Shown here piece by piece: positions 25,355 through 46,930 of a DNA stretch of 64,000 nt; within the stretch, counting starts at the first letter, position 1, and each line of letters opens with the position of its first letter. A program made the position numbers and the translations under genes. Source of the stretch: Sarea resinae (lineage: Eukaryota); NCBI GenBank assembly GCA_026026165.1, contig JAPEUD010000013.1, forward strand, positions 186,001 to 250,000. The letters are read 5' to 3'. The notes beneath the pieces were generated by a model. The model was not told the origin of the DNA. It worked only from the letters and a program-made list of their open reading frames with translations, and did no database searches.

Positions 25355-27535
25355 ACGGGATTTCAGGAAATGCACTTGAAGCTGAATGGATTTGAAATAT
25401 ACATGGAGAGGTATGATGTTCACCTTCGCCTTGATGAAAGTATGAGTGGTAGCCAAGGCCGATTGCGGGGACTTAAAAGAGCTTCCCCACGTAAGGACCC
25501 CACTTGGCCGAGGCAAGCTGCGCTTATTCAGCCCTTGCGTCAAGGACGGGACTCTATTCGCCATGTGTGGAGTAGCAGAGCCGCCATCCCTCTAGGTACG
25601 TGGAAACCCAATGCAAGATGAGATCAATGTAAAGCTATCTGGAAACTCTCAATCACGAGGCTGAAATTATACTGAGCATCTTTGTGGACAGGGTATCGCA
25701 GGATTGAATAATTCTGGCTCTCTGCAATAGTACAACGAAGGCTTCCTCTTTCCCCCTGCTCTTATGATTACCCTCTTCGTCCTTCTTCTGCAATGCCAAT
25801 TGTCTATACATGACAGCAACATCTCTCTCTAGTCCCGCAAGCAGGTCCAACAAAAATACTTATCCTTGATTTTGATCAATGAGAGCACCCAACGACTACA
25901 TCCGGATTTCTATAATTGTCCCTTACTGACTGATCCTAAAATCACGGAAGAAACGATCAAATTGCAAGCGTTCCTCTCTGGTCAATGTCGTTCTCGGGGC
26001 TTCGTTATGACAACAGCGATGGCTCTTGGGATTCATTGTTGATGCACTAGAGTATGATCTCATCGTCACGACTGTTCTGCTCAATCTGATATCGTCTGAT
26101 ATCGTGCCCTCTAATTGACAGTCTTTAAGAGGTTTTAGATCACGAATGAGGGAAGCAAAAAGCTCAGACACCCTTTTGAGTGGTCTTACGAAATCCCATT
26201 TGGAATTATCTCATTGGCAATTGTGGCCAGTAATGAAAGGGGTTCATAACATTATGTCGGAACTTCGTAACAGTAATATATATGCGGGGCCTCTACTTCA
26301 CTTCTCCATCTAGTCTTCAAATACTGCGATGGGTCATGGCGTATGTAAAGGCGTGCGTATATAGGACAATTGCTATTCACATCATATCGAAACCATCAAG
26401 TGCGATAATCATTCATTACTTTGTAGCAATCATGCGTTTATACCATTACGCCATACAACCTTTCGTTATAATGAGTAGTCTTAAACAGGATTATATGGCC
26501 CTTTGCCATTCACAGATGGTTCGAGCGTTCGAATCCCGTGATAACCCCGGAACGTCAACCATTCAAGTTCAGATACCTGAAGCAATAGTCTCTTCAAGGG
26601 TTGCTAAATATCAACGCTTGATTGAACTATTGTACTGCGAGCGTCTCTGAGGTAAGTTGCGAATGTCGAGCAGCGACTCTATAATAATTCTTTGCACTTT
26701 TTGGAGGAGGATATCTCTACCGGAACGCTGTTCAAGGTCACACTCATCTCGCCGATAGACCTCCTCGACCAATTGAGCAAAACAGCCACACGGATCTCGT
26801 GAACCCGACAAGTCAGATTCTTGTATATCGCGATGTTCTCTTAACCTTTTATATCATCTTTCTATCCGCGCTCTCGCATTGAGGACCAGTAGAGGCGCCG
26901 CCAACATACGTCACGAACCTTGAGGCCATCGACCGCTCTCTATCTATCATGCTCTGTGAAGCGGTTGGGCTTGAAACCGACGGGTTCGTATCTTGGGCAC
27001 ACGACCCTTCTTACTACCTTGATATCTGCCCAGAGCCACCACCCGCAGCAACAGCAATGAAAATAACACAACGGCGCCAATCATTACGCCAGAAGCTTAC
27101 GTACAATATCCTTGTTGAGCTGATGGTGCCTTTCAGACTTCGCTCCGCCTTAGTATGCTCTTCTTTTGCTCTTTAAGCAGGGACCCAGTAGTCTACTTAG
27201 ATTGTTCGAGAATTAGTTAGGAGAAGTCGCCAAGTTTCTTACGGCATCAGGTATAAATGTTGTATAGAGGCTATCATGAAGCGCTTTGCTATCGATCAAG
27301 TTATGGTCTCCTGGTGGCATTGGCAGTCACCACCGTTATGATCCCATGCTTCTATGCTATATATATCTACTTACGGCTTGCATTACTCGATCATCATTTT
27401 CATCTCCAAATCCAGATGCGCGCATATATGGAGTACTTCATACCTTTGGAGTGGACCCTTTCATGTTCACGCATATCCCTTGCCTCAGTATACTCAGACC
27501 TCGCTTGGCGGGTGGTCCGCTGCGCACGGACCACT

Positions 27536-27590
27536 ATTGCCTAAATAGGCAATCCACCAGCCAGAGGTCTGAGGCAATTTCTCTAATTTT
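27536..27590 (+). repeat. Left terminal inverted repeat of the transposon
   Basis: AATCCAC (27551-27557), 8 nt, then GGTCTGAGGCAATTT (27566-27580). This is the reverse complement of the right-end blocks with identical spacing. Confidence 0.8.
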
Positions 27591-27699
27591 CTACGTCAGC
27601 AGCGGCTAATTTGTATAGAGTCAGCGATTATTAGCAAGCATTAATTTCAAACCATAAGATATCTGCAACCACAACGCCTATAGCAGTGATAGCTATATT

Positions 27700-30380
27700 A
27701 TCTAAAAGCTACACTTCTGTTCTATAATTAATTACTATATCTGCTTCTAGGACTGATCCTAACGTGCAGAGGAAGCGCTAGCAGACAACGACTATTTCTG
27801 CACTAATATCTGCGCTAACTACGCTATAGACATCCTCTTCTGCATTGCTAACCCTTATATTAGCGCTGTTAGCATCGAATACTAATTAGTCTCTGCTAGA
27901 AGCGTTAGCAGATAAGGTTATACCTAGCAGAATAAGTGCAGAGGCTAAGCTCTACTACATTATCGCTAAGTTGTAGGAGTAGCAGGTGACGCCTTTAACT
28001 CTTATAACGTTCTAGCTAGAACATATAAAGGATAATCGAAACTTCTGCTAAGCTAAGCAAAGGAAAGACCTTGTTAGATTAGTCCTTAGATTTAATAATA
28101 TCAACGATCTTCTGTTAGAAGCAGACAAAGGCCTAGCTGTAGTAATAGACAGCAGTATTAGCCTTATCTGCAGCGAATTAAACCAGCTACAGAATCGTTG
28201 TCAGCTGTTTAGCTAATACAGTAAAGACTTAGACTTTAAGACACTTGATATAACTCGCTCTGCAAGCAACATCTTAGAGATAGCGCCTATATTGTCACAA
28301 CTAATTAGCAGTGCAGCTGAATCGCAGTATGCAGCGAAACATTAGCAGAGGACCTATTTAGCAGACGCTAGACGACTTGTTATAACAGCATCTATATTCT
28401 GTCTTAGCTACGCTAAATCGTCAATGAATTGCTTTGCCTACCTACTAGGATTATATCTATAAGACTCTAGGTTAACACAGCGTGCGCTAAGCACGCTCTA
28501 TAGCCTAGGTCTAGTAGATAGATATCGCATAATAGACATGCAGAAACAGCGGATATTAGATTAGAGCAAGGAACGTGTCCTCTAAACGCTACTGTCAGCT
28601 AGGGCTAACTAAACAAAGGCAGATATCCGCTCAGCTGCGCAGACGTAGGACTACACTATTGTATATAACAACTTTAAATAGCACGCAAAAACACAGCATT
28701 AAACAGTTAGTTATACTAGAACGCTCTACTTATACACTACTAGAAAACTCCTACACAGACGATGTTTACTAAGCAGAGGACTAACGCAGGACATGTTCTA
28801 CCCTAATGTTTGTGCTAATATAATAACTCTTCTAGAAGCAGACAGAAATCAAGTCGATAAAACGCAGGCGCAGATATTAACGCATTTAGTTGCTAGTGCT
28901 ATTTGCACAGCATGTCTAGACATTGTTGATGCTATATTCGCAGCAGATATTAATGCTTTCCTGCAAATGCCAGCTGTTAACGTTCTTCTGCCCTTGCAAA
29001 CAAAGCATATAACCCTTAGACTAATCACTAAATCTAAGGGCTCTGTAGCAGGCACATATTAGGTGTTAGACAACATCTTTGCTAGCCAACTAGGGAAGGA
29101 TACAGTCGACTTTAAAAACAAGTTAGTGTTAGTATTTAGTGACTAGAAAACAACAGCGCTGATCCGCTCTTATTAGCTTAAGCGATTAGAGGCAGCAGAT
29201 GTATATAATCGACTTAATTAGATATTATCAGTACCTAGCCTCTTTCACTTGCAGATAAACCTGCTAGCATTGATTGTCAGATCGCACTACAGCAGACAGA
29301 GCAGTCTCAACTAATACTTGACGTTATATTCGCATATAAATTACCTTAGTTGTTAGAATATACCCGCGGATAAAGCGCTGTTTCACTACTAGCAAGAGCT
29401 TGTTCAACATAGCTTTTAGGCCAGAATAGTTGCACTATTTATATCACAACTATCTGTTTTATATAGACAATAGAGTAAAGGCTGACTAGATAAGATGCTC
29501 TGCAAAATGACTCCTACAAACTTTCTTGCTTAGGTAGAGAATATCTGCAAAACTGTCTTCTTTGCTGCTAGCTATTAGGAGTTAGCTTAATACAAGAAGG
29601 ATATACATAGTAGAGATAGAGACATAGCAGGTGCTAGTCGAAAGCAGAATCATAAGCAGCAGCATCTCCTGCATAATTCTAAGTATTTTAATCACATCTG
29701 CTTTCTGCACTATATAGAAACATACTTGACCTTAAGGCATGCTATTAAATTCGCTGATATTAGTTTGCTCTGCCGCGCGATTACCTGCAGCTGTCTGTAT
29801 TTCAGCAGAAGTGGTTTGCATAACTATTTGCAAAAGATAATCTGATTTTAGCAGCTGATATTAACGCTAACGTGTGATCTGTGTCTGCAGGAGGCTATAC
29901 TTGCAAATAGTCTTGTCAGCAACCACAACAAACTAGGTGCCTTTATAGAAGTCGATCAGATAAACAAGCTGTTAAATCTAGAATTAAAGACTATCTTGCA
30001 GACTAAGGGCAATTTAACGTTTGATGTGACAGCTTTATTCAAATAGTTAGTGCTGCTGACTAGCTATCTTACTCTGCTCTGTGCTAAGTTTGAGTTTGCA
30101 TTTAGCAAGCAGACAAACACTTCTTATACCGACAAATCCGCTGCTGCAGATATTAGGAGTCTTGCAGATATTATTGCCTAAGACTCTATAATCCGCCGCG
30201 AGGATAGGATGTCTGCATATATAGCTCTAGGATTGTTGCAATTAGGTGTTATGCGACTAGCTTAGAAGGGGCTGCCTACGCTTGCTAGCAGATATATAGA
30301 TCTAGATAAGGAGGGTATTTCTAATATAGACTAACAGATAGTAGAGGCGTTAGTAGGCCTTGATGTGAGTATATCTTAGC
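27700..30380 (+). pseudogene. Academ/DUF6589-type transposase, RIP-mutated (ends approximate)
   Basis: Motifs read through the mutations: IVY(N>D)NF near 28660; VF(S>G)D(*>Q)KT at 29138; VP(S>G)LFHLQ(I>M)NLL at 29231; ILANSLVSN...FIEVDQIN(K>E)LLNLELK near 29900-29990. The last three share one frame and match the GDQxT / GLFH / DxxxExxN pattern. Confidence 0.78.
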
Positions 30381-30558
30381 GGCTTTATTGTGATTTGTAT
30401 AATAGCTGACTTTATTGTAGGCACTAGATACCTAATTAGTATAGCGGACAAACGCACGATTATACTACTTCCTAGTCATATACTAAATCATGATTGCAAT
30501 TTGATTCTATCTACTATTGTGTGCCTAACTAGCCAGCTATTAGCTTAGCCACGTTAGA

Positions 30559-32117
30559 CTAACAGCCTATGCAGCGGATAATGTTTAGGATCTTAAGGAT
30601 GTCACCTGCTATGCACGACTGCCCTGCTCTTAGATCTGTAATGTCTGCTTGTAAATCAGCTATCAAGTCATTGCTAACAGCGGCTACAGCGGCAGAAGGT
30701 CCTGCAGACGCAGAAGAAGGTGCTGTTGCAGCGACAGTATGTCTTGCAGACGCGGACAAAGCGGCTGGCTAATAAGAAGGACGTTAGCAGGGCTAGGTTT
30801 CAGCAAGAGGTGAGTCGCTAGCTGTGTCTTTATCTAGGTCATTATTATTAACAGCTTCCTTAGTCTTCTGTTGCTAAACAATTCGTTAGCTAACCTAGTC
30901 TAATATACATATGCATTAAACATACTTTCTATAGCCTTTTGCCACTGTCTAACGCATTATTCTTGCGCTTTTTACCTTTGTTAAGACGCGAAGAGGTGCA
31001 GACAGCCTTCTTAATATGTCAGCTATAGCAGATATTCACTATAACATACCACTGCTATAGCGGATATAGCAGATAGATATACTAGAGGAGTATTATTATC
31101 ATTTGCATTGATTACACACGGTTTTCCAGCCTAGCGACACCCTGCGCAACTGTCTCCTAGCTTAACTATATGCTTCTTAACTTCTTAGCAGTAGACCTTG
31201 CAAGGGATGCCTTTTTCGACACATTGTTTGCACTTGTAGGTTAGCTCTATGCCCTAGTATAGGTCGTTGAATATCAAATCAGCATAGGCATAGGCTTTCT
31301 AGCGAGTCTCCTTTAGCCTATTCTAAACAGCGTCTAAACACGTCAGCTAGTCTAGTTCGGTTAGACGTGCAATAAACCACTGTTTATTATAAAATCAGCA
31401 TTGCATACAGTTCTCTGCAGCGGCAGATAATTAGGCCGCGGCGGCAGACAGGCTAGCGGCAGACAGGTTAGCGGCAGACAGGTTAGCAGCAGACAGGTTA
31501 GCAGCAGACAGTTAGGCAGCGGCAGACAATTAGGCGATAGCGGCAGACAGCTTATCTTCGAACAATTTCAAAGCTTTAGCATTGTTATTATCCTCTAAGA
31601 CAAACCCTAAAGACTAGTCTAACGCATACTCTGCTATCCCTTTACCTTTGTCCTTTAGCCCTGTATCTGAGTTATCTTTATCTAATGATTTGTCTGCTAA
31701 CCCTTTACCTTTATCCTTTAGTGGCGCTATACCTAATTCACCTTTGTTAGAGGGTTTGTCTGCTGCCGCCCTTTTAGTATATTGTTTAATTTCTGCACGT
31801 GGCAGCAGGCAGATTAGGAAGGGATATTCCGACTAATACTTGATTGCAGGGGCGGCAGACGACTCAGCAGGGGCAGCAGACAAAACAGCAGCAGCAGACA
31901 AGACAGCAGCAGCAGCAGATAAGACAGTAGCAGCAGCAGAGACAGCAGCGGCGGCAGACTCAGCAGCGGCAGCAGACTTAGTCCTAATTAGAAGTCAGTT
32001 ATCATATCTAATATAATAAAGAAAAGTTTGAGATTAGGTTAGTTAAACAGTTAAAACTTACATGACTAATATTAAGGTTTCCTCTCTAATCAGACGAAAG
32101 TCATTAGCAGCTGACAT
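30559..32117 (-). pseudogene. RIP-mutated gene for a low-complexity protein with a Zn2Cys6-like cluster (third gene of the element)
   Basis: ATG at 32117 (MSAANDFRLIREE), a GTAAGT..CTAAC..TAG intron ~32008-32061, Ala/Ser-rich repeats, then CKQC-VEKGIP-C-x17-CAGC-R*AGKP-C at 31232-31116, and a C-terminal amphipathic helix LIADLQADITDLRAGQ. Confidence 0.6.
31441..31515. repeat. 15-bp tandem repeat GCGGCAGACAGGTTA (~5 units) inside the element; related GCRGCAGAC units at ~31850-31980
   Basis: Units start at 31441, 31456, 31471, 31486 and 31501. They differ mainly by G>A or C>T changes. Confidence 0.9.
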
Positions 32118-32436
32118 ACTATAAAGTTGCTAGTAAGAGGTTAGAGTTAGTTAGAAGTGTCAACTTACACTAGCCTTAAAGCACCTTTAGTACTATTCGC
32201 AACGTTCGACAGATATTGCTCTAATACACTGTTCTTAGCGAAGTCATCAGCTATAATAATAGCAAGGATGATATAGATATTAGTTATTAATAATTGACAG
32301 GCTGTAGCAGAGTTATTAAACAAAAGAGGTGCGATATTAACGATGTTAATAAGGTCGATAAGGTGATAAGGTTGATGATATTTGCAGGTCAGCTACACAA
32401 AGAAGTAGTTCTTTATTCGAACAAAGAAATCGCTAG

Positions 32437-34960
32437 TCAACTATTCACTCGATTTATTAGGCGTACTCGTTTGCTAGATGCAGAAGTTGACAGCAGGTAG
32501 AGGTGAGTATTTATATCTACCTTAGCTAGAGGCTGACGTCTCTTATATAATCTATTAGGTGTGTCTAACAGAGTGTCAACTTGTGGTATGTGACGCAGAT
32601 TAATGACAGGTGGCAAATCAGCTGGCTGACTAGATATATTAGATGCAGATAATAAGGACAAGTTAGCTACAGCTAGCATTAAGGCCGCAGGTTGCATAGT
32701 TAAATCCTCTACGCATATACAGGCTAACAACGCACTTAATTCAGACTAGCTAAGATCACTACCAGCCTATTCTGCACATCTTAGCAACGAACCTACATTA
32801 TAAATACTAGTCTTCTAAACGCATATCCGCTGTATAACGTCCTCTAATATTGTACATCCTGCTACAAGGACCTAGGTCATATCCTTGTACTTTGTCTGCG
32901 TCTGCTCTAACATCTACTGCTTGATCTAAACAGCTATATGTTTGTTAGGGTAGCTGGATCGCGGCGTAATACCTGAGTTCAGCGGTCAAAAGTATAGCTT
33001 CCTAGATAAAACTAGCTCTAGGTTGCAGTTCAAACAGCAACGTCTGCGCAGAACAGGTTCCTTAGTGTTTTCGTCTGCTAGCTGCTTATTAAACGCCTGC
33101 ATAAATATTGCCTACAAGCAGCCTTTCTCCTCGTTCGCAAAATTGTATAGCAGAGGAGGAAGCTCTGCTCGCTGTTTGTATACATCTTTATGCTTGACTT
33201 TCACAGGCTAAGGACCTATTTCAGCTGGTACAGCAATATGCAACCCCTCTAGACTTAGCTCTTGCATTATCCGCCGTTCAATATCTGTGTCAGCCGCGTT
33301 GTCATCTAATAATACAACAAAGGAGACAGCAGAATCAACACTTATACTGTCAGAGTCTGCGCTTTTATATGCCTGCTCTTGACTTAATAGACTTAGCTAA
33401 GACAAGGAAGTTGATGTCTGCACAGCAGATATCTGTGTGCTAGATATCTGCGATCTTAACTGCTAGCTATTATCACTACTTGCTTGCCTTGCCCTAGTCT
33501 GCACCCTAGGACCTTTACACTACTTATTGATAAAGAAAATTGCCTCTCCTTTCTGACTAGCACCTTATGCTGCCTGACTAAATCGTTGCTATACTAAGCT
33601 TAGAAGGCGATCACAAAAGATGCTAAGATAAACCACCTGCTTAATATCTGCAACGTCTGCACCCTAGGCAACTGCATCTGAACAGAGCAACACTCTTATT
33701 CTTAACTGCAGCTGTGAAAACTCCGCCTATATCTGCTCTTTGTCTTGCTCTGCAAGGGTAGCGTAGTACACATTAACTGTGTGCATTGCTAACCGCGCTA
33801 AATATCTGTAGTCCCTTAGCTACTAACAGACCTTGTTGCAGGCTTCTGCAAGCTGCTGTTTACTGTTAATAAATATCGCTGTCTTTAGGATCCGCTGCAG
33901 AGTTAGACAGTAACGTCGTTTAGTATAGCTACTATTAGCAGATAGCACAGGCGTCTTAGATTCTATAGCTAGCGCGGCTGATGCAAGAGATTCTAGCCTA
34001 ACCGCGGCAGATGTTCTAATGTTCGCGGATATAGTTAGCTAGGACCTAGCTATATCTGCAGTGTCCTTAGCACAGCCCTTAATAACAAAGTATAGGCAGT
34101 CAAATAACTTCTTATTACCGCGGCAGATATATTCGCAGATAATAGCCAGCTCTAGTCGATCAATTAAGGTGCAGATCAATTTGACATTGTTATTAAAGCA
34201 AGCAAGCTAGTATACCTCTGCAAAGGTGTTGTTATCTAGTGTTGCAGTGCAAGCAAACTAGGGCTTGTTTCCTAGAAATCTGCAGAGGATACTAAGCTTA
34301 GCATAGGAGCTGCAAAAGGAGGACTAGTTTGAAATTAGATAAACCTTATCTAGCACTACAAGCGCTATCCGCTCCTGCAATTGTATGTCTTTCTATATCT
34401 GCTTGAAATTTGTGCTAACTGCAAGCTCTAGCGAGATTAGGATGTGTGTATATTTGCAATTGCAGATATCCTTAAGGAGTTAGTTGTTATTGTTCTAACC
34501 TGTTATATAAACAGGCTTTATACCTGTAAGCTCCTTTATCTGCATAGTCTGCTTATCTCTAATCTTGTTTAGCAGAAGAATAACAACAACAATAGCGTTG
34601 CAGACTAGACACAGAATTGACTGCATAATTATACTCTTGCTAAACGAAGTTTTAGCAACTAGAAAGAGATCTTTCTTAGTGTATATCAGCTAGCAGAGCG
34701 CCTGCAGCTGACCTATCCTTCTGCTATATAGGTATATCGCGCAGATAATCGCATTAATCGCTGCGAGCTGTGCCTGTTTGTCTGCATAGTAGAGCTCTTA
34801 AAGTCTGTCTTGCAGGGCCTATATTTAACGCTCTTTATCTGTAGTAAGGTTGCTATATGCTATTGCTTCTGCTTGCAAACGTTCTTTATCTGCAGAGGGT
34901 AGCTGCAGTAGGCAGACATATTTGCCCTAGTTAGAGCGTCTTCTTTAAGGTATCTAGCAA
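32437..34960 (-). pseudogene. RecQ-like superfamily 2 helicase, RIP-mutated (ends approximate)
   Basis: Motif I DLFLVAKTSF(S>G)KS ~34665-34633; Ia IVVVIL(L>P)LNKI; YTHILIS(L>P)EL; II VVLD(K>E)V(Y>H)LISN(*>W) ~34350, then SF(C>R)SSYAKL; III FACTATLD; IV KTAIFINSK; V RVLLCSDAVALGADVADI ~33700-33650; VI QRF(S>G)(Q>R)AA(*>R)G ~33590-33562. Confidence 0.85.
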
Positions 34961-35289
34961 ATATAAGTGATCTAATAAGGAGACTATAGCTTTTTCTAAC
35001 CTTATATAATTCCCTAAAGTCGTCACAGCTGATATAGTGCAGGCGTTGTTGTGATATTAAGGTGGAAATAATTGTCCTATAGTAAATCTACTGCTTATTA
35101 GTGCAAACAGTTATTTTCACTTTAAGGCATAAGATAATCTAATCAACTGCACCTGTTACAATACAATTAGGACTATTCGATAGCCCTGTTAAAACTGTAT
35201 AGATAATTAGATTTCTATAGCTGCAGCAGATGTGGTTGTAGATATATGCTGATAAACTTATTTGCTATGCAGATGAAAAATCTGGTTTT

Positions 35290-35350
35290 GCCGCAAATTT
35301 TCAGAAAAATTGCCTCAGACCACATTTTCGTGGATTACCCTTTCGGGAAT
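35290..35350 (-). repeat. Right terminal inverted repeat of the transposon
   Basis: AAATTGCCTCAGACC (35307-35321), 8 nt, then GTGGATT (35330-35336). Coincides with the end of the TpA-rich tract. Confidence 0.8.
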
Positions 35351-38300
35351 GCTTAGTCATTCATCCGAACGGGCCGGATGTTAATCCGGATCCACGTGAT
35401 GTGGTCTGAGTCTACTGAGGCAAGCATATCCCTCGGGCTCCAGGACAACAGGGTCCGTACGTCGAGGCGAGCACGGGAAAGCACGATGTGCAGTTTCCGG
35501 GTCCGGCATCCGCGCTGTTTGGAGGGATGGATCCATCTTAGCAAATCCATGGGTTGCAGACTGCAGTGTGGTACATGAACGTATTGGACCTTTTTGAATA
35601 GATACATAAGGGTACGTGGAGACTAGAGTCTAGCGGGCCCTTTTGACCGGGTCTTAGTGTTCAGGGAGGCGATAATAGGGTACAGTGGTTCAGCGAGGGA
35701 GTAATTGCCATTTGCGTGGGACCGGATGAACCTCATGCACGACTGAATGCCTGCGGTGCATTGGCGCTGGCTCTGGCGCCGATGCTGGATCATGGATCCA
35801 TTGGCAAAAGGATGGATATGTGATGACCTCGGTGCCGAATATCTGAACCCTGGGCTCGGGCACGGACCTTGGACAGGGTGAGGACGGCAAGCTGCGCGCT
35901 CGGGAATAATGCGAGTCATCGCTGATCAGTCATTACCGGATTGATACTCGATACTGTAAGGTTCTTTCGGCGAGCTGAACTTCCAAATTTGAATTCATTT
36001 AGGAGGGAAGGTCTCATTGCAAGACTATCACTTGATTCGTATTCGGCAGATGCGAATTCTGGTCAAAGGGTTAGCCAATAATAAAGAAGCTGTCAAGGGC
36101 TCAAGAGATCACGATCTACCAAAGCTTGAACCTCTTAAACAGCTGATTCACCATTAAGGTAGAGTGAGTATCTCAGTGGATAATAATGCCTGTGACTCGG
36201 GTTGTCATCACCACAGCGGTTGCCATTGTCTCCAATCATTAGGCCAATGTCCTTCGTGGAGGCTCGTAAGTACTAAGTAAATAGTTTCTTGGTCCCAGGT
36301 AGGTAGATACAAGTAATATAGCCGGATCCTAACAGAAGTCCTTACGACCGATCCCCAGTAGACCCGTTTTACCTTCAGTGGGTAATTGAAGGTAGTGTTC
36401 ATGGACTCTTGGCCCCTTATCACGAGATTCAAGCCAGGATGAGACGGTGTTTCCTTACAACCAGTATTGTAGACCTCGGTCCGTAAAGATAAAGCAGCGG
36501 TGATTTGAAATCAGTACTGAAGTTCATAGGTATAAATTGAAACACATCATCAGTTCTTCGCGAGGCTCAGGACTGTCCAGACAGATACTCTTGGACCGAG
36601 AATTCATGTCGAGAGGGCCCGCATCTGGGGCAACGTAATGAACCGTAGATAAAGTGCGTGTGCAGGTGCACTATCGACAAAAAAGATTCTCTGACAGCAG
36701 TCCATCCAACTCATCCCTCCCTCTTTTCCTTTTTGACGCATCTCCATTCTCACTTCTGCATAATCGCTGGCAGGCTATGACTAATTTGGACACTGGTATA
36801 CTAGATCGTGAAAATGGGAAGTCAATCAGTAGCAAACAGAGAATAGATGCGTTGTTAAAATCTTGGTCAATAATGTCATAAACCCACCCGATGCGTTCGA
36901 ATTTGCTGTGTAAGACTCATGGCCAGATATATCGGTAGTGCATAGTGCCTCCTTTGTGGGGTTTCGACCGATGTCAAATGATTTCTGTTTGAGATTATCT
37001 GGGAAGCTTGCCAAAAGTAGGCATAATCATCCTCAATGGCGCAGTGAAGGACTTCGATGTGATCTGCAGAGTTGTTTTCTATGTCCATCATATTTCAATT
37101 CTCAGACGCTGGCGTCGCCTTTGACGAGCACCAGACTAGGAATCCGGTCCTCTGAATCTATTGCTATCAGCCCAGTCTCCAGGATGTGTACAATCCCTGG
37201 AACTTGTATTCAAAACCTTGTCCTGTAGGTTGGTAGTAATTATGGTGCTTAGCAAAATCACTCTCAAGTGCAGAAGGAAAGCGCTTCCATGCTGTAAAGT
37301 TCGAAAGATGTGGACTTATTTGGATTTCCCTTGCCCTGGCCTTTTTCCGTTCCATAAAGAAAAAATCAACGGTGTTCCGTTCGGATTGCACCACGGGCTT
37401 ATTCAATTCGATTGCTCGCGCTTGAGCAGCGGCTTGTCTAGGATCGAGTGCGTTCCTCGTGGGTTTTTTCAGTGTTTTCACGATAGTATCTTCTCTAGGT
37501 CCATCTCAGTGTACGGATTACCTAGTCGGTCAGCTTAACGCCCTTCATGGTCCGAAGACATACTCCTTAGCCCCAAGGACCAACGTAGATACTGAAGCTG
37601 CGTTTGATAGTCTTATAGGTCCTTCGGCTTGGAAGGCACATCCTGTAATCAAGAAGGACGAGTAAAAAAAAGGAGAGGTTGAATGGTGATAAAATAAATA
37701 GCGAATAGGGCAATCAAGAAACAGCGTATTAGCTACTGAAGTACCTACCTTAGGTTTCGCATCAAACTCAAAATCTTATCTTATCTTGTCGGTCTTTGAT
37801 ACAACAGAACCTGCAAGGGCCACCCCTTGGGTGTTCAAGGGCAACCTGCCTACTCCGGAGTATTCGAGTACCTAGGTACCTGGGTACATATTCTAGGCAG
37901 TGAAGCCCGAATGGATTTCTCATGGCTCGCGAATATTCTGTAAATTTTGCACAAAGAGACTTCTTAGTACTACCTAACACTACTAGAGAAGGTGGTATTT
38001 CAGGCAGCCATCTCCTTGAAAACGGATTCCCATCGGCGCTTGCTCCATGCAATTTCAGATAGATTGAAATATGGCACAGTTTAGACATGGGAAACACTGC
38101 CCAGCGGATGCCCAACCTAAACCCCATCATTATTATCCGTAATCTCGGAAACGAAAAGACGCTTTCTCTCCAAGAAGCTGGAAGGACCGATGAACGACGT
38201 GGCACAGAAGCTTGCCCCAAGCCCGGCTTACCTACCTAAGTAGTACCTAAGACACTCACCTATCGCCGTTAGTCCAGTGCAAGGGCGTCGCCCACCCTGC

Positions 38301-40787: not shown

Positions 40788-43556
40788 ATTCGGTGGCGAT
40801 TTTTCGTGAACTGATCACGGATAGTGTCGAAGCCAGACGTATTTTCGAAAGCCAGTCCGATTCCTATTGTGAAGGAGGTGGGAGCAAGATTTGAATCTTT
40901 ACGAGCCTGGGTAGGTCGCGATAGCCGAGTCGACGAAATAGATATGAACGGGCTAGATTATTGTACTCGCCCTCGATGGCGATTTGTTTAGTCTATCGCA
41001 GGACCGATCTGAGGAATCCAGAAGTCGAATGGAAGAATGAAGAAGTTGAATAGATATTATTGCGTATCGGAACGTCGAGGTTTGGACGAAGCGGGAGCTT
41101 GCAGCTTTCGGCCGCTAAAGCTAGTATGCTAAGGTAGGTCGTACGGAACGACTTTAGGAAGATTAGACGTCCGCAAAAGGCAAGACGAGCCTAGTTGCGC
41201 GCGTTTTATAGCGACCCAGGCCTCGTAATGATGTTGCGCACGATCTGGTTCAGACGCTCTGCTGTCTGACAACGCACAGCAACGGTACCAAGAGGAGGGA
41301 AAGCAGGAACCAGAGCGAGCAGAGGAGATGGAGGAGGAAGGAGTAGAAGAATACCTTGGCTACCTATCTAGCTACCTATGTGTCTAGGTATGTTCGGTAG
41401 GCAGGTTGACGATTACCAAAAAGCAGGAGATAGATACAGTAGTAGTCCCAGTAGTCCTTACCGTATGTTCAGTAGACCCGCCGGACGGAGAAGGAACAAG
41501 AAAGGGCTCGTTCATTATTCGTTCGCGCGCTCGTTCGCTTGTTCGTTCGTTTATTGATGGGTAGCAGTCCGTACTACTACGTACTCGGTCCACAGCGCAT
41601 ATCCATGAATGTACCTCGTAGTATGATCGTTGGTTGGCCCCGGGCACGCACCCAAGGAGCTGCCTGCCCATCGCAGTCCGAGATGCTGGAAGACGCTGGA
41701 CGAAGAGGGGAATGATACGCCTGTGGTCCCTTGCCAGGAAGAACGACGAAGAACCATCTGTACCCGTATCTGCACGCGGGCAACGTGGTGACAAAGGGAC
41801 CTTCTTCCCACGTACCGATGCTCTACCGTCCCCAGTCGGCCCCGGTCGGGTAGTGGCTCCGCACCCTGAAGATACGCCATCCATGGATCAATGGATAGCC
41901 CTCGTCTGCGAGGAGCCCAGGTATCGGTACGCAGCCGACCCTGAAGACCTCTATGAAGTAATAAGGACCTCTCGGGCCTCTACTCGCGCCGTCCCAAGAT
42001 GCCGCCCACCCCCTGGTAGACTCCCTAGCTGATACCGATGGCAGCCATCGGTCACCGATTGCAATCACCAAGACTTCACCTTTACCCTATTGGCTTTCAT
42101 TGCTTGTTGAAACCGTACAGGCCATGTACGTAGAGTAGTATCCATGTTTTCAATAGCTACCTAATTGTAGTTGCGTGGAAGTACCTCCCTGCTTGCAGGC
42201 CAAGGAGAGAGCATGAATATCACAGCTGCAGCCAGTGGAGGTATAACGTGATACGCAAAAAGGGAGTACTCCGTATGGCGAGTCCTAGGCTTCTGAACCG
42301 CGCGAGTACTCGTGCATAGTAACTAAGGTACCTTAGGTAGTGCTGTGCGACTAGCCGGAGACTACCTTACATACTCGCACTCTCCTGCCTGTCCTGTTGA
42401 ACCTCCCCGACTTTTCGGGTGTCTGTCCTCTAGCAGAAGGGAGACGAGACTTAGCTTCCACATTGACGTTTTCTCTAGGTAAGTTATGGCAGTTCCTCCT
42501 AGTCATTTCACCTCCACCGCCGCATCCCCCCTCCCGTCTACCTCGACCACAGTACAGAGTAGTGCATCTTCCTCCGGTACCCAATCACCCTACCCGCTGT
42601 CAGACTCGCATAATTGGGCTTGCCGCAGCCTAATGCAAATGGCCTCAGTCCGCGGGTCCAGCCCTTCTGGCTGGATCGGTTTGGCTCGCGCAGAGCATAG
42701 GGGCAGCCCAAGCAGAAGAAATCTTGAAGCGCTACTAGAGTAGCAATCCACCATTGCTACCTACATAAGGTAGTACTCCGGGTAGATGCTGTTGGTGCTG
42801 ATTTGACCCCGCAGCACCCAGGATCAGAGATGCGCCAAGTTCAAGTAGAGCACTAAAGAGCGAGACCGATAACGAGACCGTCTGAGATTGAAACCAAAAT
42901 CGATGCTGAATGACACGATACGATCGCGAAAGAACTGAGAAAGCATATTGGACGCAAGCTCTCTTAACAGAGACCGATGAATTGGAGGAGCGCATATTCG
43001 CCGCATACCACTATCAATACATAGTACTGTCAACTTAGGTGACATCTGTACCTCCTAGCTACCTAAGCTCCATATTGCTAGCAAAAAATGGGAAGTAGAT
43101 ACCTTGGCTGATAACCTTTGCTGCCTTGAAATCTAAATACCAGTGGGGACCTTCTCCGAGTACAGACACTACGGACTAATGCTCTACCTTCCCATCGATG
43201 ACTTTTCTTTCAAGAACATCATTTTCTTGCTACGTATATTGATTTTGCTACGGTAGGTAAGTAGGTACTCGTGCTATCTTTTGGTTCACCTCCTAATCAA
43301 CTTTCTTCGTTCACATCCAATATTATCTCGACTCTGTCGTTAACCTACCTATTTTTACAGGTAAGTACTATTAAGCGTAAAAGGCGCGAGTTTCTGGGCG
43401 ATCTCGATAATAATTTATATGATACATAATGCCAGACTCTCCTCCTCTTCTAGCTATTATGTAGTTGTAACATTGCGAAGATGTTAAGCTGCCAAGGTAT
43501 CTTAAAGGTCATAGAGCTTGATTTAATATACCATTAACAAGAGCTTATTTAAGTAT

Positions 43557-43639
43557 GGCCTGCTGGCTCAATGGTAGAGTGCTTGACTACGACCGCCTAG
43601 TCAATCAAGTGGTTGCAGGTTCGAGCCCTGCGTAGGTCA
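43557..43639 (+). tRNA. tRNA-Arg(ACG) with an 11-nt intron (43593-43603)
   Basis: GGCCTGC acceptor stem, TGGCTCAATGG A-box, CTTGA-CT-ACG-A anticodon arm, GGTTCGAGCC B-box, followed by an oligo-T Pol III terminator. Confidence 0.95.
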
Positions 43640-43947
43640 TTTTTATTTTTTGGGAGCTATATGACTTTAATTGCTTCAGCCTGGAATTTTTTTCACATCA
43701 ATTTTCAGCATATGGTTTTAGTAAAACTTTAGCGATACAAAACAAAAGCTTGTAGCTTTATTAATGTACTTCGTAAGAAGCTGCTTCCTTTCTTTTATAT
43801 CGCTGTCTTAAGTGGATGCAAGTGATAATATCCTGTAGGGTACGTAGTAATTGTACAAAAATAAGATTCTTACAAAACCCTAAGAATTAGGTACTGAAGT
43901 GTACTGAAGTACTTTAAGGATCTTAACAGTTAAGACGCAAAAACAAT

Positions 43948-44030
43948 TGACCTACGCAGGGCTCGAACCTGCAACCACTTGATTGACTAGGCGGTCGTAG
44001 TCAAGCACTCTACCATTGAGCCAGCAGGCC
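43948..44030 (-). tRNA. tRNA-Arg(ACG) with intron, identical second copy in inverted orientation
   Basis: Exact reverse complement of 43557-43639; followed on the minus strand by TTGTTTTT. Confidence 0.95.
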
Positions 44031-46930
44031 TTTCTTATTGGTCAATTAGTCAATATTGTAATTGATATAGTCTTAGGCTCAGATATAAGCCAGCATGCAT
44101 GAATAGAAAACATGCTCTACTGCGTACTACGTACTATGAGGTCGGCACTCTAACGCAGAGGTATGGATTGAAATCTCTCGTACGAAAAGGAGCTAGGAGC
44201 GTACCAGCGGCTACTGCCATCGAGTAATCACTTTTCCGGAGTAGGGCTCGTGCTGTGATCTCTTCACTCGTTCCATCCGGGTTCCAGACAGCTCACACGA
44301 CATCGATCGTCACCACTGCAGGGACTCGAAAGTGGCATGCCATCTAGCTTACTACGTGGAATTTGATTTTGATCTCAACGGAGCACGTTAATAAGAGTGC
44401 AGTATTCAAGTTGAGTTGCAAATTCGCATGGTGACTAAGTTACCTACTCCGAACCTCCAGTCCATCATGGATACTGTGTATTACTTCGTACCTCAGGAAA
44501 CTTCATACCTTACTAGGTAGGTACCTTACATTATTCTACTAAGATGCCTATCCACTTCAGGAGGAACCGAATCCACGGAGGGCCAACTTTTGCTAGCGGC
44601 CGGCAACGTCTTTGCTGCAAATGGAACTCCTTGATTGTGAAACCCCAGCTTCCTCAATTGTTCAGCCTCAATTGAATCAAGCTTTTCTGTCAAAAGTATG
44701 AGTTTCTTCGCTAGCCCAGAATTCGAGTGCCGTTCAAATTAGGATGGTACATAAGTTGATCGTCCGGCAGAGACCGCATGGAGAATCGTTTGGTATTCAT
44801 TCCTGATAGAGTACTCCGGAATAGCTGGCCTCCAGTTCCGCCATCCTTGACCTAAATGTCTCCACATTTCGCTAACCCGCACCCTTCGGTTGATGCCGTC
44901 CTCGAAGGCCAATTGATAGTCTTCGCAATGATGCGATGCTTGAGGTAATTTCTAGCTATCTTGCCTAACGGAACAATAAGGTATTTCAAGGTAAAGCGCA
45001 GCCCATGAACGACGCTGACGAGATCCAGCGTTTAAGCTTGATATGCGACAGCCAGAACGAGAAGACCGTCTATCAATTCTAGATCACTCAGGACCTTCCT
45101 ACATACCAAGGCAGTACCCCATACGGGGCTCGAGACTTCCTGCTGCGGAGACGCTGCCGCATGCTGTCAAAAACTAGGTACCTGACAATAAGAGTAGAAA
45201 CGCCCGGAAATAACATTGTCATCCGACGTCTATCCATAGATTTTGGCCAACTCGCACGTCTCTGTCCGACTCGGTTTCAAATCCAAGCCGCAGACAGGAT
45301 TTTGTACATCGCTCATTGACGAATGAGGGGTCGGCCACGATATTCTCTGTTCATAGAAGGCCAGTCCTCAATGCCTTGAAGATCCGTCTGATCTAAGGTC
45401 TCATCGCTCGGCCTTCGATGGCGCATTATTAGCCCAGTAATTCTGGGACTCCGCCTGACCAGTCAATAGTCAGCAACACCATCTGATGCCCACGGCACAA
45501 CATAGGAACGTTAATCCTGCCATTCCTGGCAAGATGCAGAGGGGCATCAACCAACGTGAGCAGGCTTAAGTGCCGGGATCGACATCATAGCTTTCCTGAA
45601 GCATGATGAACTATGGAGATGCACTATGAACGCCGTGCTAGCATGCATCCTTGTTCATTGTAAGTATAGCGGCAAGCTGTGTACTGTTTATTTCTATTCC
45701 AATCCAACTCCATCTGTACGTTCGGTAGGTAGACTTGATCTCTGATAACGATGAAGCTGATTGAATATCTTGACTGAAGATCATAATTGATTCTATAGGC
45801 CTTGAAAATCGTATAAATCCTGCCTGTCTGCACGCAGGTCTCGAGCACCTATCATTTGGTGGGGTAACTTTCTCGAGTCTCTACTAGTCCTGTCAAGTTC
45901 AATAAGGGCTTGGGTTAGTACCAATCTATGAATGAGTTAATACCGTCTTAAGCTGAACGGCCTTGATCGGTAGAAAGGCTCAAAGGTCTCCGTGGTATCT
46001 GAAGGTGCGCGATGATATTACAGCCGCCTTATTATTTTTGAGGGTGAATCTACATACTTAGAGATGCTATTTACCTCAAAGTATTCCCGCTGAGCCGACA
46101 TTAGAACAGGACAGAAAGAACTTTCGAGGTACCTCAAGATGTTCTCAGGTGCATTAGATATTTTGCTCATATTTGGCTATCTAAACGGATGACAATATCC
46201 CAATATCTATTTAGGTTGCGAAAGGCATTTACTACTCCAGACGAATCGAATGTTTCGGGCGAATTCTAAGTCATTTTCTGCTGTCTGAATATCGCTCTAC
46301 AAGCCTCATCATAGAGATAGGGAGGCCGATTCATCCAAATCCAAAGAGGGAAAACTCTTGAAATACAATCGGCCACCTCGTTACCAGCGAGGCCTGCAAA
46401 TTCAACCCATCAAGGTCTTTAGCCTGATACAACTTTAGATCAGTCCATAAAACTTCGAATCTCTGGAAACAATACCAAATTCTACGCTTTCAAGCTCTAT
46501 GGCTACCTCCTTGCCACCGGCTCAACCATGAGCTACAATATTTCAATCTTGACTTTGGACTTTATGCAGATTGAAAAGAGCCGGTAGGCAGCGTGACTAC
46601 AGCTATATGCGGCCTTACACAAGATTGCACTGGACATAATAGAATCTTAATATTTTCTTACTGGTCCTCCAATTCTCCAACTTGGACGATTTGTGGATCG
46701 GTGTCAATTCAAAATCTCGGCGGCTCACCAAGCGGGATGCGCCATTTAGATATGAAATAATCAAAACTATTTTGGGAAGCTCATCTCAACATGTCACGCA
46801 TTCAGACAACGCTCTACGCCCACAGAGCTTTCAAATGCATAAGAAAGATGCATTACCCCATCCTGAAGCCATTATCTCTTTCGTTTGATCAAAAATTTCA
46901 CATTCGTTTCTATTTCCCTGATCGCCGAAC

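Follow-up and report, generated by a model that had tools for sequence, protein, structure and literature searches.

The window, a stretch of 64,000 nucleotides of Sarea resinae DNA (contig JAPEUD010000013.1, positions 186,001 to 250,000), contains a dead AcademH-like transposon of 7,944 bp at positions 27480-35423. Two core genes, for a transposase and a RecQ-like helicase, face each other within it, and between them on the minus strand lies a third gene, referred to here as gene 3. Apart from gene 3, the element is made up as follows.

27471..27479: left TSD, 9 bp, GCATATCCC, identical to 35424-35432
27480..27500, plus strand: left TIR, 21 bp, 20 of 21 positions matching the right end
27512-27534 and 35362-35380: small palindromes CCG-N7-CGG near both element ends
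27548-27584 and 35303-35339: second, internal inverted pair, 37 nt
27660..34893, both strands: 40 dispersed copies of the word GCGGATA (9) or its CpG-decayed form GCAGATA (31)
27737..30480 (approximate ends), plus strand: DUF6589 DDE-type transposase gene, broken by stops; PF20231 matched on the copy L033
32437..35000 (5' end approximate), minus strand: RecQ-like helicase gene, broken by stops; domains matched on L033
35403..35423, minus strand: right TIR, pairing with the left TIR
35424..35432: right TSD, 9 bp, copy of the left TSD

The element is RIP-mutated and depleted of CpG, with a CG/GC ratio of 0.36 compared with 0.91 in the flanks. Elsewhere in the window (43550-44037) there is a 488-bp MITE-like element with 99-nt arms that are 95% complementary and no copy of GCGGATA.

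The domains of the core genes are best seen in L033, the least mutated copy of the element. The transposase of this copy matches PF20231 (DUF6589; E 6e-36), and pieces of its minus strand match DEAD (E 6.5e-5), Helicase_C (E 4e-6) and RecQ_Zn_bind (E 1e-4). The transposase alignment retains YDN, GDQ and D-x3-E motifs. When a structure model of a close intact transposase (P0020) was compared with known structures, all of the top ten matches were to Hermes transposase; these were weak (best E 0.014), and no structure was matched at E ≤ 0.001.

The AcademH lineage of Academ DNA transposons was reportedly described by Kojima in 2020 in Mob DNA 11:15. Its members have TSDs of 9 or 10 bp, according to the accessible part of PMC10045372. 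A 9-bp TSD of its own surrounds every one of the 12 own-genome copies examined, full-length or deleted but with both ends present, and the same length is found at the metagenome loci L073, L076 and L087. The DDE transposase, the 21-bp TIRs and the RecQ-like superfamily-2 helicase, the last as seen on the L033 pieces, are also those of AcademH, and the TTRCCTCAG-type terminus of the window TIR recurs in the metagenome relatives. KolobokH, for which the accessible part of PMC9587614 gives a TTAA-specific duplication of 4 bp, was rejected as an identity since the TSDs here are non-specific and 9 bp long. On the published criteria the element therefore appears to work like AcademH; DUF6589 would then be the Academ transposase.

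A search of the Sarea resinae genome gave 48 matches to the element, which form three subfamilies about 65-74% alike: A (the window copy, L002 and L003), B (L031-L033, L040 and L042) and C (L034-L039). Gene 3 was found in all three. The B copy L032 (5,585 bp) has a central deletion that takes out the exon encoding the cysteines. Two B copies (L040-L042 and L161; G000:C118 and C11) are interrupted by a Gypsy-like insert of about 11 kb and, as they agree in both left flank and Cys exon, represent one insertion held twice. A 927-bp non-autonomous derivative, L043 (G000:C88, about 178,100-179,100), has the same termini and a 9-bp TSD, and contains no GCGGATA.

The exons and the start of gene 3 were placed by homology and splice signals. 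The resulting hand-made splice model for the window has 5 exons, 4 introns and 469 codons, with 16 internal stops and no frameshifts, and that for L033 has 474 codons with 4 stops in a single frame. All of the features of the window gene are on the minus strand.

32169..32254: exon 1, predicted, homologous to the L033 first exon with its ATG
32062..32085: exon 2, predicted, 24 bp, its opening resembling L033 exon 2
31083..31983: exon 3, low-complexity repeats followed by the conserved domain
31233..31400: conserved extension of about 45-55 aa, helical, on the N-terminal side of the domain, common to the metagenome loci L045 and L067 and the database proteins P0007-P0016
31116..31232: six-cysteine cluster C-x2-C-x6-C-x17-C-x2-C-x6-C, complete in 12 of 13 copies
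30926..31009: exon 4, short, basic, nuclear-localisation-like, of the same type in L033 and L045
30559..30873: exon 5, an Ala/Ser/Pro-rich stretch and a C-terminal heptad-like helix (about 30672-30580)

A preliminary description of this DNA, made from the window alone, had proposed a gene with one intron, beginning with an ATG at 32117. The intron that it recognized (32061-31984) is present as one of four. The ATG falls within predicted intron 1 and the homologous start is near 32254, so that on homology and splice signals the ATG is probably intronic and the start lies upstream, even though a version beginning at the ATG also splices in frame. At the predicted start all three subfamily A copies read ATA. 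The Ala/Ser-rich repeats and C-terminal heptad-like helix of the preliminary description are present, and a similar terminal helix, judged by eye to be a coiled coil, closes gene 3 in subfamilies B and C, L045 and L067. Its six-cysteine pattern at 31232-31116 also stood: such a pattern did not arise once when the element was dinucleotide-shuffled 200 times, and two further matches in the window are low-complexity repeats read off-frame. The junctions of exon 4 agree with those of the database models P0003 and P0044. In P0003, a gene model labelled Sarea resinae, splicing skips the Cys-coding part and the annotation thus hides the domain.

The cysteines could have been products of RIP, or their exon part of an unrelated nested insertion missing from other copies; both possibilities had been raised at the outset and neither held. 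The Cys exon is present in 13 of the 15 own-genome loci searched (two of the 13 being the insertion held twice); it is absent from L032, where the deletion removes it, and from L041, a locus made up mostly of nested insert. Twelve of the 13 retain all six cysteines and the remaining copy has a single Tyr; Arg stands at a Cys position in none, and genuine Arg-to-Cys changes are seen at other positions. Comparisons between the subfamilies give a dN of 0.32-0.40, with dS at saturation. For two intact paralogs at L045, described below, dN/dS is 0.35 (P=0.003) and 0.25 (P=0.0003). Comparison of the copies shows gene 3 to be a real, spliced and conserved gene under purifying selection. The window copy of the gene is dead, as is its element.

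To place the gene outside this genome, a metagenome was scanned with a 7-sequence transposase alignment and the best 80 of 143 confirmed loci were taken, of which 37 have a convergent helicase. A domain profile built without any of these loci recognized gene 3 between the two core genes at 7 of the 37, and the domain at four more loci without a helicase match. Several fungi thus have the gene in this place; the other 30 loci have no gene 3. The gene-3 loci belong to three lineages, namely the L045 family, L076 and L067. The L045 element is intact and carries two tandem gene 3 paralogs (L045:3606-7245) that are 78% identical in the domain. Their gene plan resembles that in the window, with a short acidic exon 1, a low-complexity region, the domain, an intron directly behind it, a short basic exon and a C-terminal heptad helix; the introns and spacers hold GCGGATA in tandem copies. 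One L045 paralog is 95% identical to a database protein that bears the label Cenococcum geophilum, and the splice junctions following the domain coincide in the two. An own-genome search with the L045 domain, of low sensitivity, matched the L033 copy alone. At L057:1004-2649 a 1.6-kb non-autonomous derivative of the L045 family adjoins an element of a family without gene 3.

In a quick tree of 35 transposases the gene-3 elements come together in a single clade (SH-aLRT 99). Nested within this clade (SH-aLRT 99 and 89) is a two-gene family (L046, L048, L084 and P0020). The consensus of this two-gene family contains no trace of gene 3, and most simply the family would have lost the gene. It is found on the same contigs as the L045 family, and the two therefore share a host. 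Intact two-gene elements with the same termini are also known (L101 and L105).

These comparisons bear on a further reading, by which gene 3 does nothing for the element and is either cargo acquired from the host a short time ago or an artefact of RIP. Of the 37 loci where both core genes are present 30 lack the gene, which fits such an origin, as do the related domains of host-like C2H2-finger proteins (P0007-P0009, P0011 and P0043). It is nevertheless highly improbable, and largely refuted, since the Cys codons are conserved, the gene is under purifying selection, an intact duplication is retained in L045, and the position and exon plan of gene 3 stay the same between elements with a transposase identity of only about 45%. 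The proposal that the element carries an accessory gene beyond the transposase and helicase is accordingly upheld in all three subfamilies and in the 7 metagenome loci.

The six cysteines of the domain are arranged in two C-x2-C-x6-C halves that are invariant in all 16 aligned domains. A domain search of 1.84 billion representative proteins returned 14 matches, of which three were spurious (P0004-P0006, the top three, dropped as repeat or cytochrome proteins), one was P0003 and ten have the six Cys together with the N-terminal extension. Zn_clus is matched by 15 of the 16 family members. Against a PF00172 cut-off of 21 bits the scores are 21.7 for a 71-aa piece of L033, 17.2 for a 133-aa piece and 18.3 for L045, with no match for the window copy. 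DUF3716 (PF12511) gives weak matches in 7 of 16 members (best E 0.0065) and its gathering cut-off was not reached (15 bits for L045 against 22).

Canonical domains for comparison were taken from this genome, where 27 Zn2Cys6 domains were recovered from 30 loci and 24 were used for profiles. The central loop is 5-9 residues long in the 27 canonical domains and 13-22 here, in agreement with the earlier remark that the canonical spacer is usually shorter. In all 15 domains compared, one of the 16 rows being skipped for its spacing, the first half resembles canonical half 2, and in 4 of the 15 the second half lies nearer to canonical half 1. A circular permutation of the Gal4 cluster, prompted by half-swapped HMM alignments, found no support, because the second half resembles canonical half 1 in only those 4, and because the alignment to Pho7 is colinear. 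The basic first half of the Gal4 cluster contacts CGG; a canonical basic recognition half was not found in the gene 3 domain.

The preliminary description had called for structure prediction of the Cys segment. The resulting model of the 86-residue domain has a mean pLDDT of 90, with extension helices predicted at residues 19-22 and 25-38, and its best structural neighbours are Leu3, Put3, Pho7 and Gal4. In Foldseek 17 of the 18 matches listed are fungal zinc-cluster proteins, but all have E>1. The match to Pho7 has a Z of 2.0 and an r.m.s.d. of 1.8 over 35 residues, and a wide structure search with the model gave nothing above Z 2.1. The ESM Atlas returned scores of 0.82-0.83 only, with one cluster 28% DUF3716. 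With Gal4-type clusters (PF00172) the gene 3 protein shares the two C-x2-C-x6-C halves and a putative dimerisation helix. It differs in the longer loop, the lack of a basic recognition half, the added N-terminal helical extension, and the mid-protein position of the domain, the heptad helix lying at the extreme C-terminal end. On these comparisons the domain is a long-loop Zn2Cys6-like, weakly DUF3716-like variant and a canonical member of neither class, and the gene 3 product is probably DNA-binding.

Seven proteins of 450-660 aa (P0007-P0009, P0011, P0040, P0041 and P0043) combine one or two such domains with C2H2 fingers, and two of them are labelled Dothideomycetes. They are a possible source, or a domesticated form, of the gene 3 domain.

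The word GCGGATA fills the DNA of these elements. In L033, L037, L038 and L045 it, or ATATCCG, which overlaps it, heads the ranking of 7-mers, with 29 copies in L033 where 2.8 are expected and 55 in L045 where 3.9 are expected. The ratio of observed to expected counts is 7.0-12.5 in all 7 gene-3 elements tested. Among 13 elements without gene 3 the excess is not significant in 11; the exceptions are L084 (8.8-fold) and L056 (7.1-fold), both from the two-gene family that most simply lost gene 3. The lineage L067 has only 4 exact copies. In the window most sites read GCAGATA as a result of the strong CpG depletion of the element; RIP'd copies in the L045 host retain the CG of the word. The 55.9 kb of window flanks contain 5 copies against 5.3 expected (ratio 0.9). 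The word is missing from the Gypsy-like insert within a B copy and from the other genome repeats examined. Close pairs of the intact word are as frequent genome-wide as those of a control (26 vs 25), while pairs of the decayed word number 74 against 13, and 47 of the 74 lie in element copies by hand count. Six other pair sites lack a gene-3 domain and reach about 1 site per kb at the most, compared with 5 per kb. The closest clades outside have the same termini, transposase and helicase, without the word. The word is thus confined to the same clade as gene 3. Given the single origin on the tree, the association of gene and word represents one event and not repeated co-evolution. The two-gene element L105 shows a small excess of TCGGAAA (7 vs 1.0) and ATTTCCG (6 vs 0.8), which may be chance.

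Two causes of the excess were rejected. Synonymous-codon shuffles of four genes gave 2.9, 1.8, 1.3 and 1.8 copies where 17, 8, 8 and 11 are observed, with 0 of 500 shuffles reaching the observed number in each case, and the sites fall in all six frame/strand classes; protein or codon bias is thereby excluded. The word ranks first and second in L033 and L045 among 1,624 RIP-immune CG 7-mers. RIP immunity does not explain it, because the median 7-mer of this class shows no enrichment and GCGGATA stands near the bottom of the ranking in L101 and L105. The sites show a roughly 2-fold preference for non-coding DNA in L045 (17 in 3.1 kb, vs 23 in 8.9 kb coding) and none in L033 (3 in 1.3 kb, vs 26 in 6.7 kb coding), and no fixed spacing between them was found. 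Their positions turn over while the density holds, with 2 of 11 L045 sites common to each subfamily, and the word itself is identical across hosts whose domains are about 22% identical.

The preliminary description had named end recognition, self-regulation and anti-silencing as possible roles for the gene. End recognition is the least likely of these, and the element-wide excess of GCGGATA lends indirect support to the other two. A part in transposition itself, gene 3 binding the element ends or bridging transposase and helicase as a cofactor, is unlikely. Its fixed position inside the element, a C-terminal helix that suits oligomerisation and the CCG-N7-CGG palindromes close to both ends of the window element speak for such a cofactor. 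Against it, the word is scattered over the whole element and not placed at the ends, the L043 derivative has its 9-bp TSD with zero copies of the word (one case), and L101 and L105 are intact with the same termini and two genes.

The sequences suggest instead that the element makes its own regulator. Gene 3 would encode a nuclear, probably dimeric zinc-cluster protein that binds GCGGATA(T) at 30-50 dispersed sites in its own element. Coating of the element could keep it transcribed or shield it from host silencing, and elements that have lost gene 3 could retain the word and be served in trans by the protein of another family in the same host. Zinc clusters of yeast bind dense CGG half-sites, as the accessible part of PMC10250231 describes, and the motifs to which VANC proteins bind have accumulated in the elements of these proteins as well as in an unrelated hitchhiker (PMC5735166, accessible part). 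The chance of such a VANC-like mode of action, in which the gene 3 protein recognizes the CGG-containing word throughout its element and maintains the activity of the element, is close to even, though a little below it. Counted against self-binding are the single origin of the association between gene and word, the presence of the word without the gene in one family, the non-canonical recognition surface, the constancy of the word, the inconsistent preference for non-coding DNA, the sparse sites of L067 and the transposase as a possible reader.

Alternatively, the transposase, the helicase or a conserved host factor may read the word, with gene 3 an independent passenger that would act on the host, for example in development or as a decoy of host zinc-cluster factors, along the lines suggested for the DUF3716 gene REP9-1. 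The word is kept in a family without gene 3 and is constant across distant hosts, the domain is without the canonical recognition half, a transposase alone can act as a sequence-specific activator of cognate copies (bioRxiv 10.64898/2026.08.24.746577, accessible part), and expression of the accessory gene REP9-1 affects pycnidia formation in the portion of PMC8232023 available. On the other side, the nearest outside clades with the same termini, transposase and helicase have no word, host flanks show no excess of it, and the gene-3-less exception family lives in the same host as gene-3 elements. A different reader of the word is a real possibility but a doubtful one.

The following comparisons with known systems rest on the accessible parts of the papers cited. 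AcademH elements have the same transposase and RecQ-like helicase, TIRs, 9-bp TSDs and low copy number in an ascomycete (PMC10045372, PMC10799480); neither a third spliced six-cysteine gene, duplicated here in one family, nor an excess of GCGGATA is mentioned there. In Zymoseptoria tritici the IS3EU-like element REP9 carries the DUF3716 genes REP9-1 and REP9-2 (PMC8232023). They are likewise tandem accessory genes of a fungal DNA transposon, and the domain described here is weakly DUF3716-like. REP9 belongs to another transposon superfamily with a 6-bp TSD and has no DNA motif reported in that part of the paper, and the gene 3 domain is below the DUF3716 cut-off where shown (15 vs 22 bits). 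The brtn gene, an antisense gene of Boty-like Gypsy elements, is also an extra gene on a fungal transposon, but of a retrotransposon (PMC8365987). VANC of the Arabidopsis VANDAL elements is closest in working (PMC5735166): it is the third gene of a DNA transposon, has a conserved domain among variable peptide repeats and variable exon plans, and is accompanied by a short motif that has built up specifically in the family of elements encoding it and is carried by a non-coding hitchhiker. The VANC motifs are family-specific and concentrated in non-coding tandem repeats, whereas GCGGATA is dispersed, largely coding and constant across families. The likeness to VANC is one of working only, for an element known from its sequence; homology is not expected.

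Cys-type accessory genes on fungal transposons are thus known from REP9-1 and REP9-2 (PMC8232023, accessible part) and from brtn (PMC8365987, accessible part). What is new is a three-gene AcademH-like element with GCGGATA enrichment in all 7 gene-3 elements tested. In keeping with the suspicion that this layout had gone undescribed, no third Academ gene and no GCGGATA word was found in the accessible open literature on AcademH, DUF6589 and DUF3716.

A broader proposal, by analogy with VANC, is that the AcademH-like clade encodes its own non-canonical, sequence-specific zinc-cluster chromatin regulator and that the whole element sequence, synonymous codons and amino-acid choices included, has been rewritten to provide this regulator with dozens of RIP-immune binding sites, as an independently evolved fungal counterpart of VANC anti-silencing with hitchhiking families in which the sites remain and the gene is lost. 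It is offered tentatively, the balance lying somewhat against it; if true, it could also account for the six-cysteine accessory genes on other fungal transposons. The 10-fold element-wide excess of the word stands even if gene 3 does not bind it. While REP9-1, REP9-2 and brtn are accessory genes without a molecular function, the intact duplicate in L045 comes with a candidate target, GCGGATA(T). Should gene 3 bind the word, fungi would have a transposon-encoded sequence-specific regulator or anti-silencer, zinc clusters would have a new mode of reading DNA, and the element would be shaping its codons to recruit its own protein.
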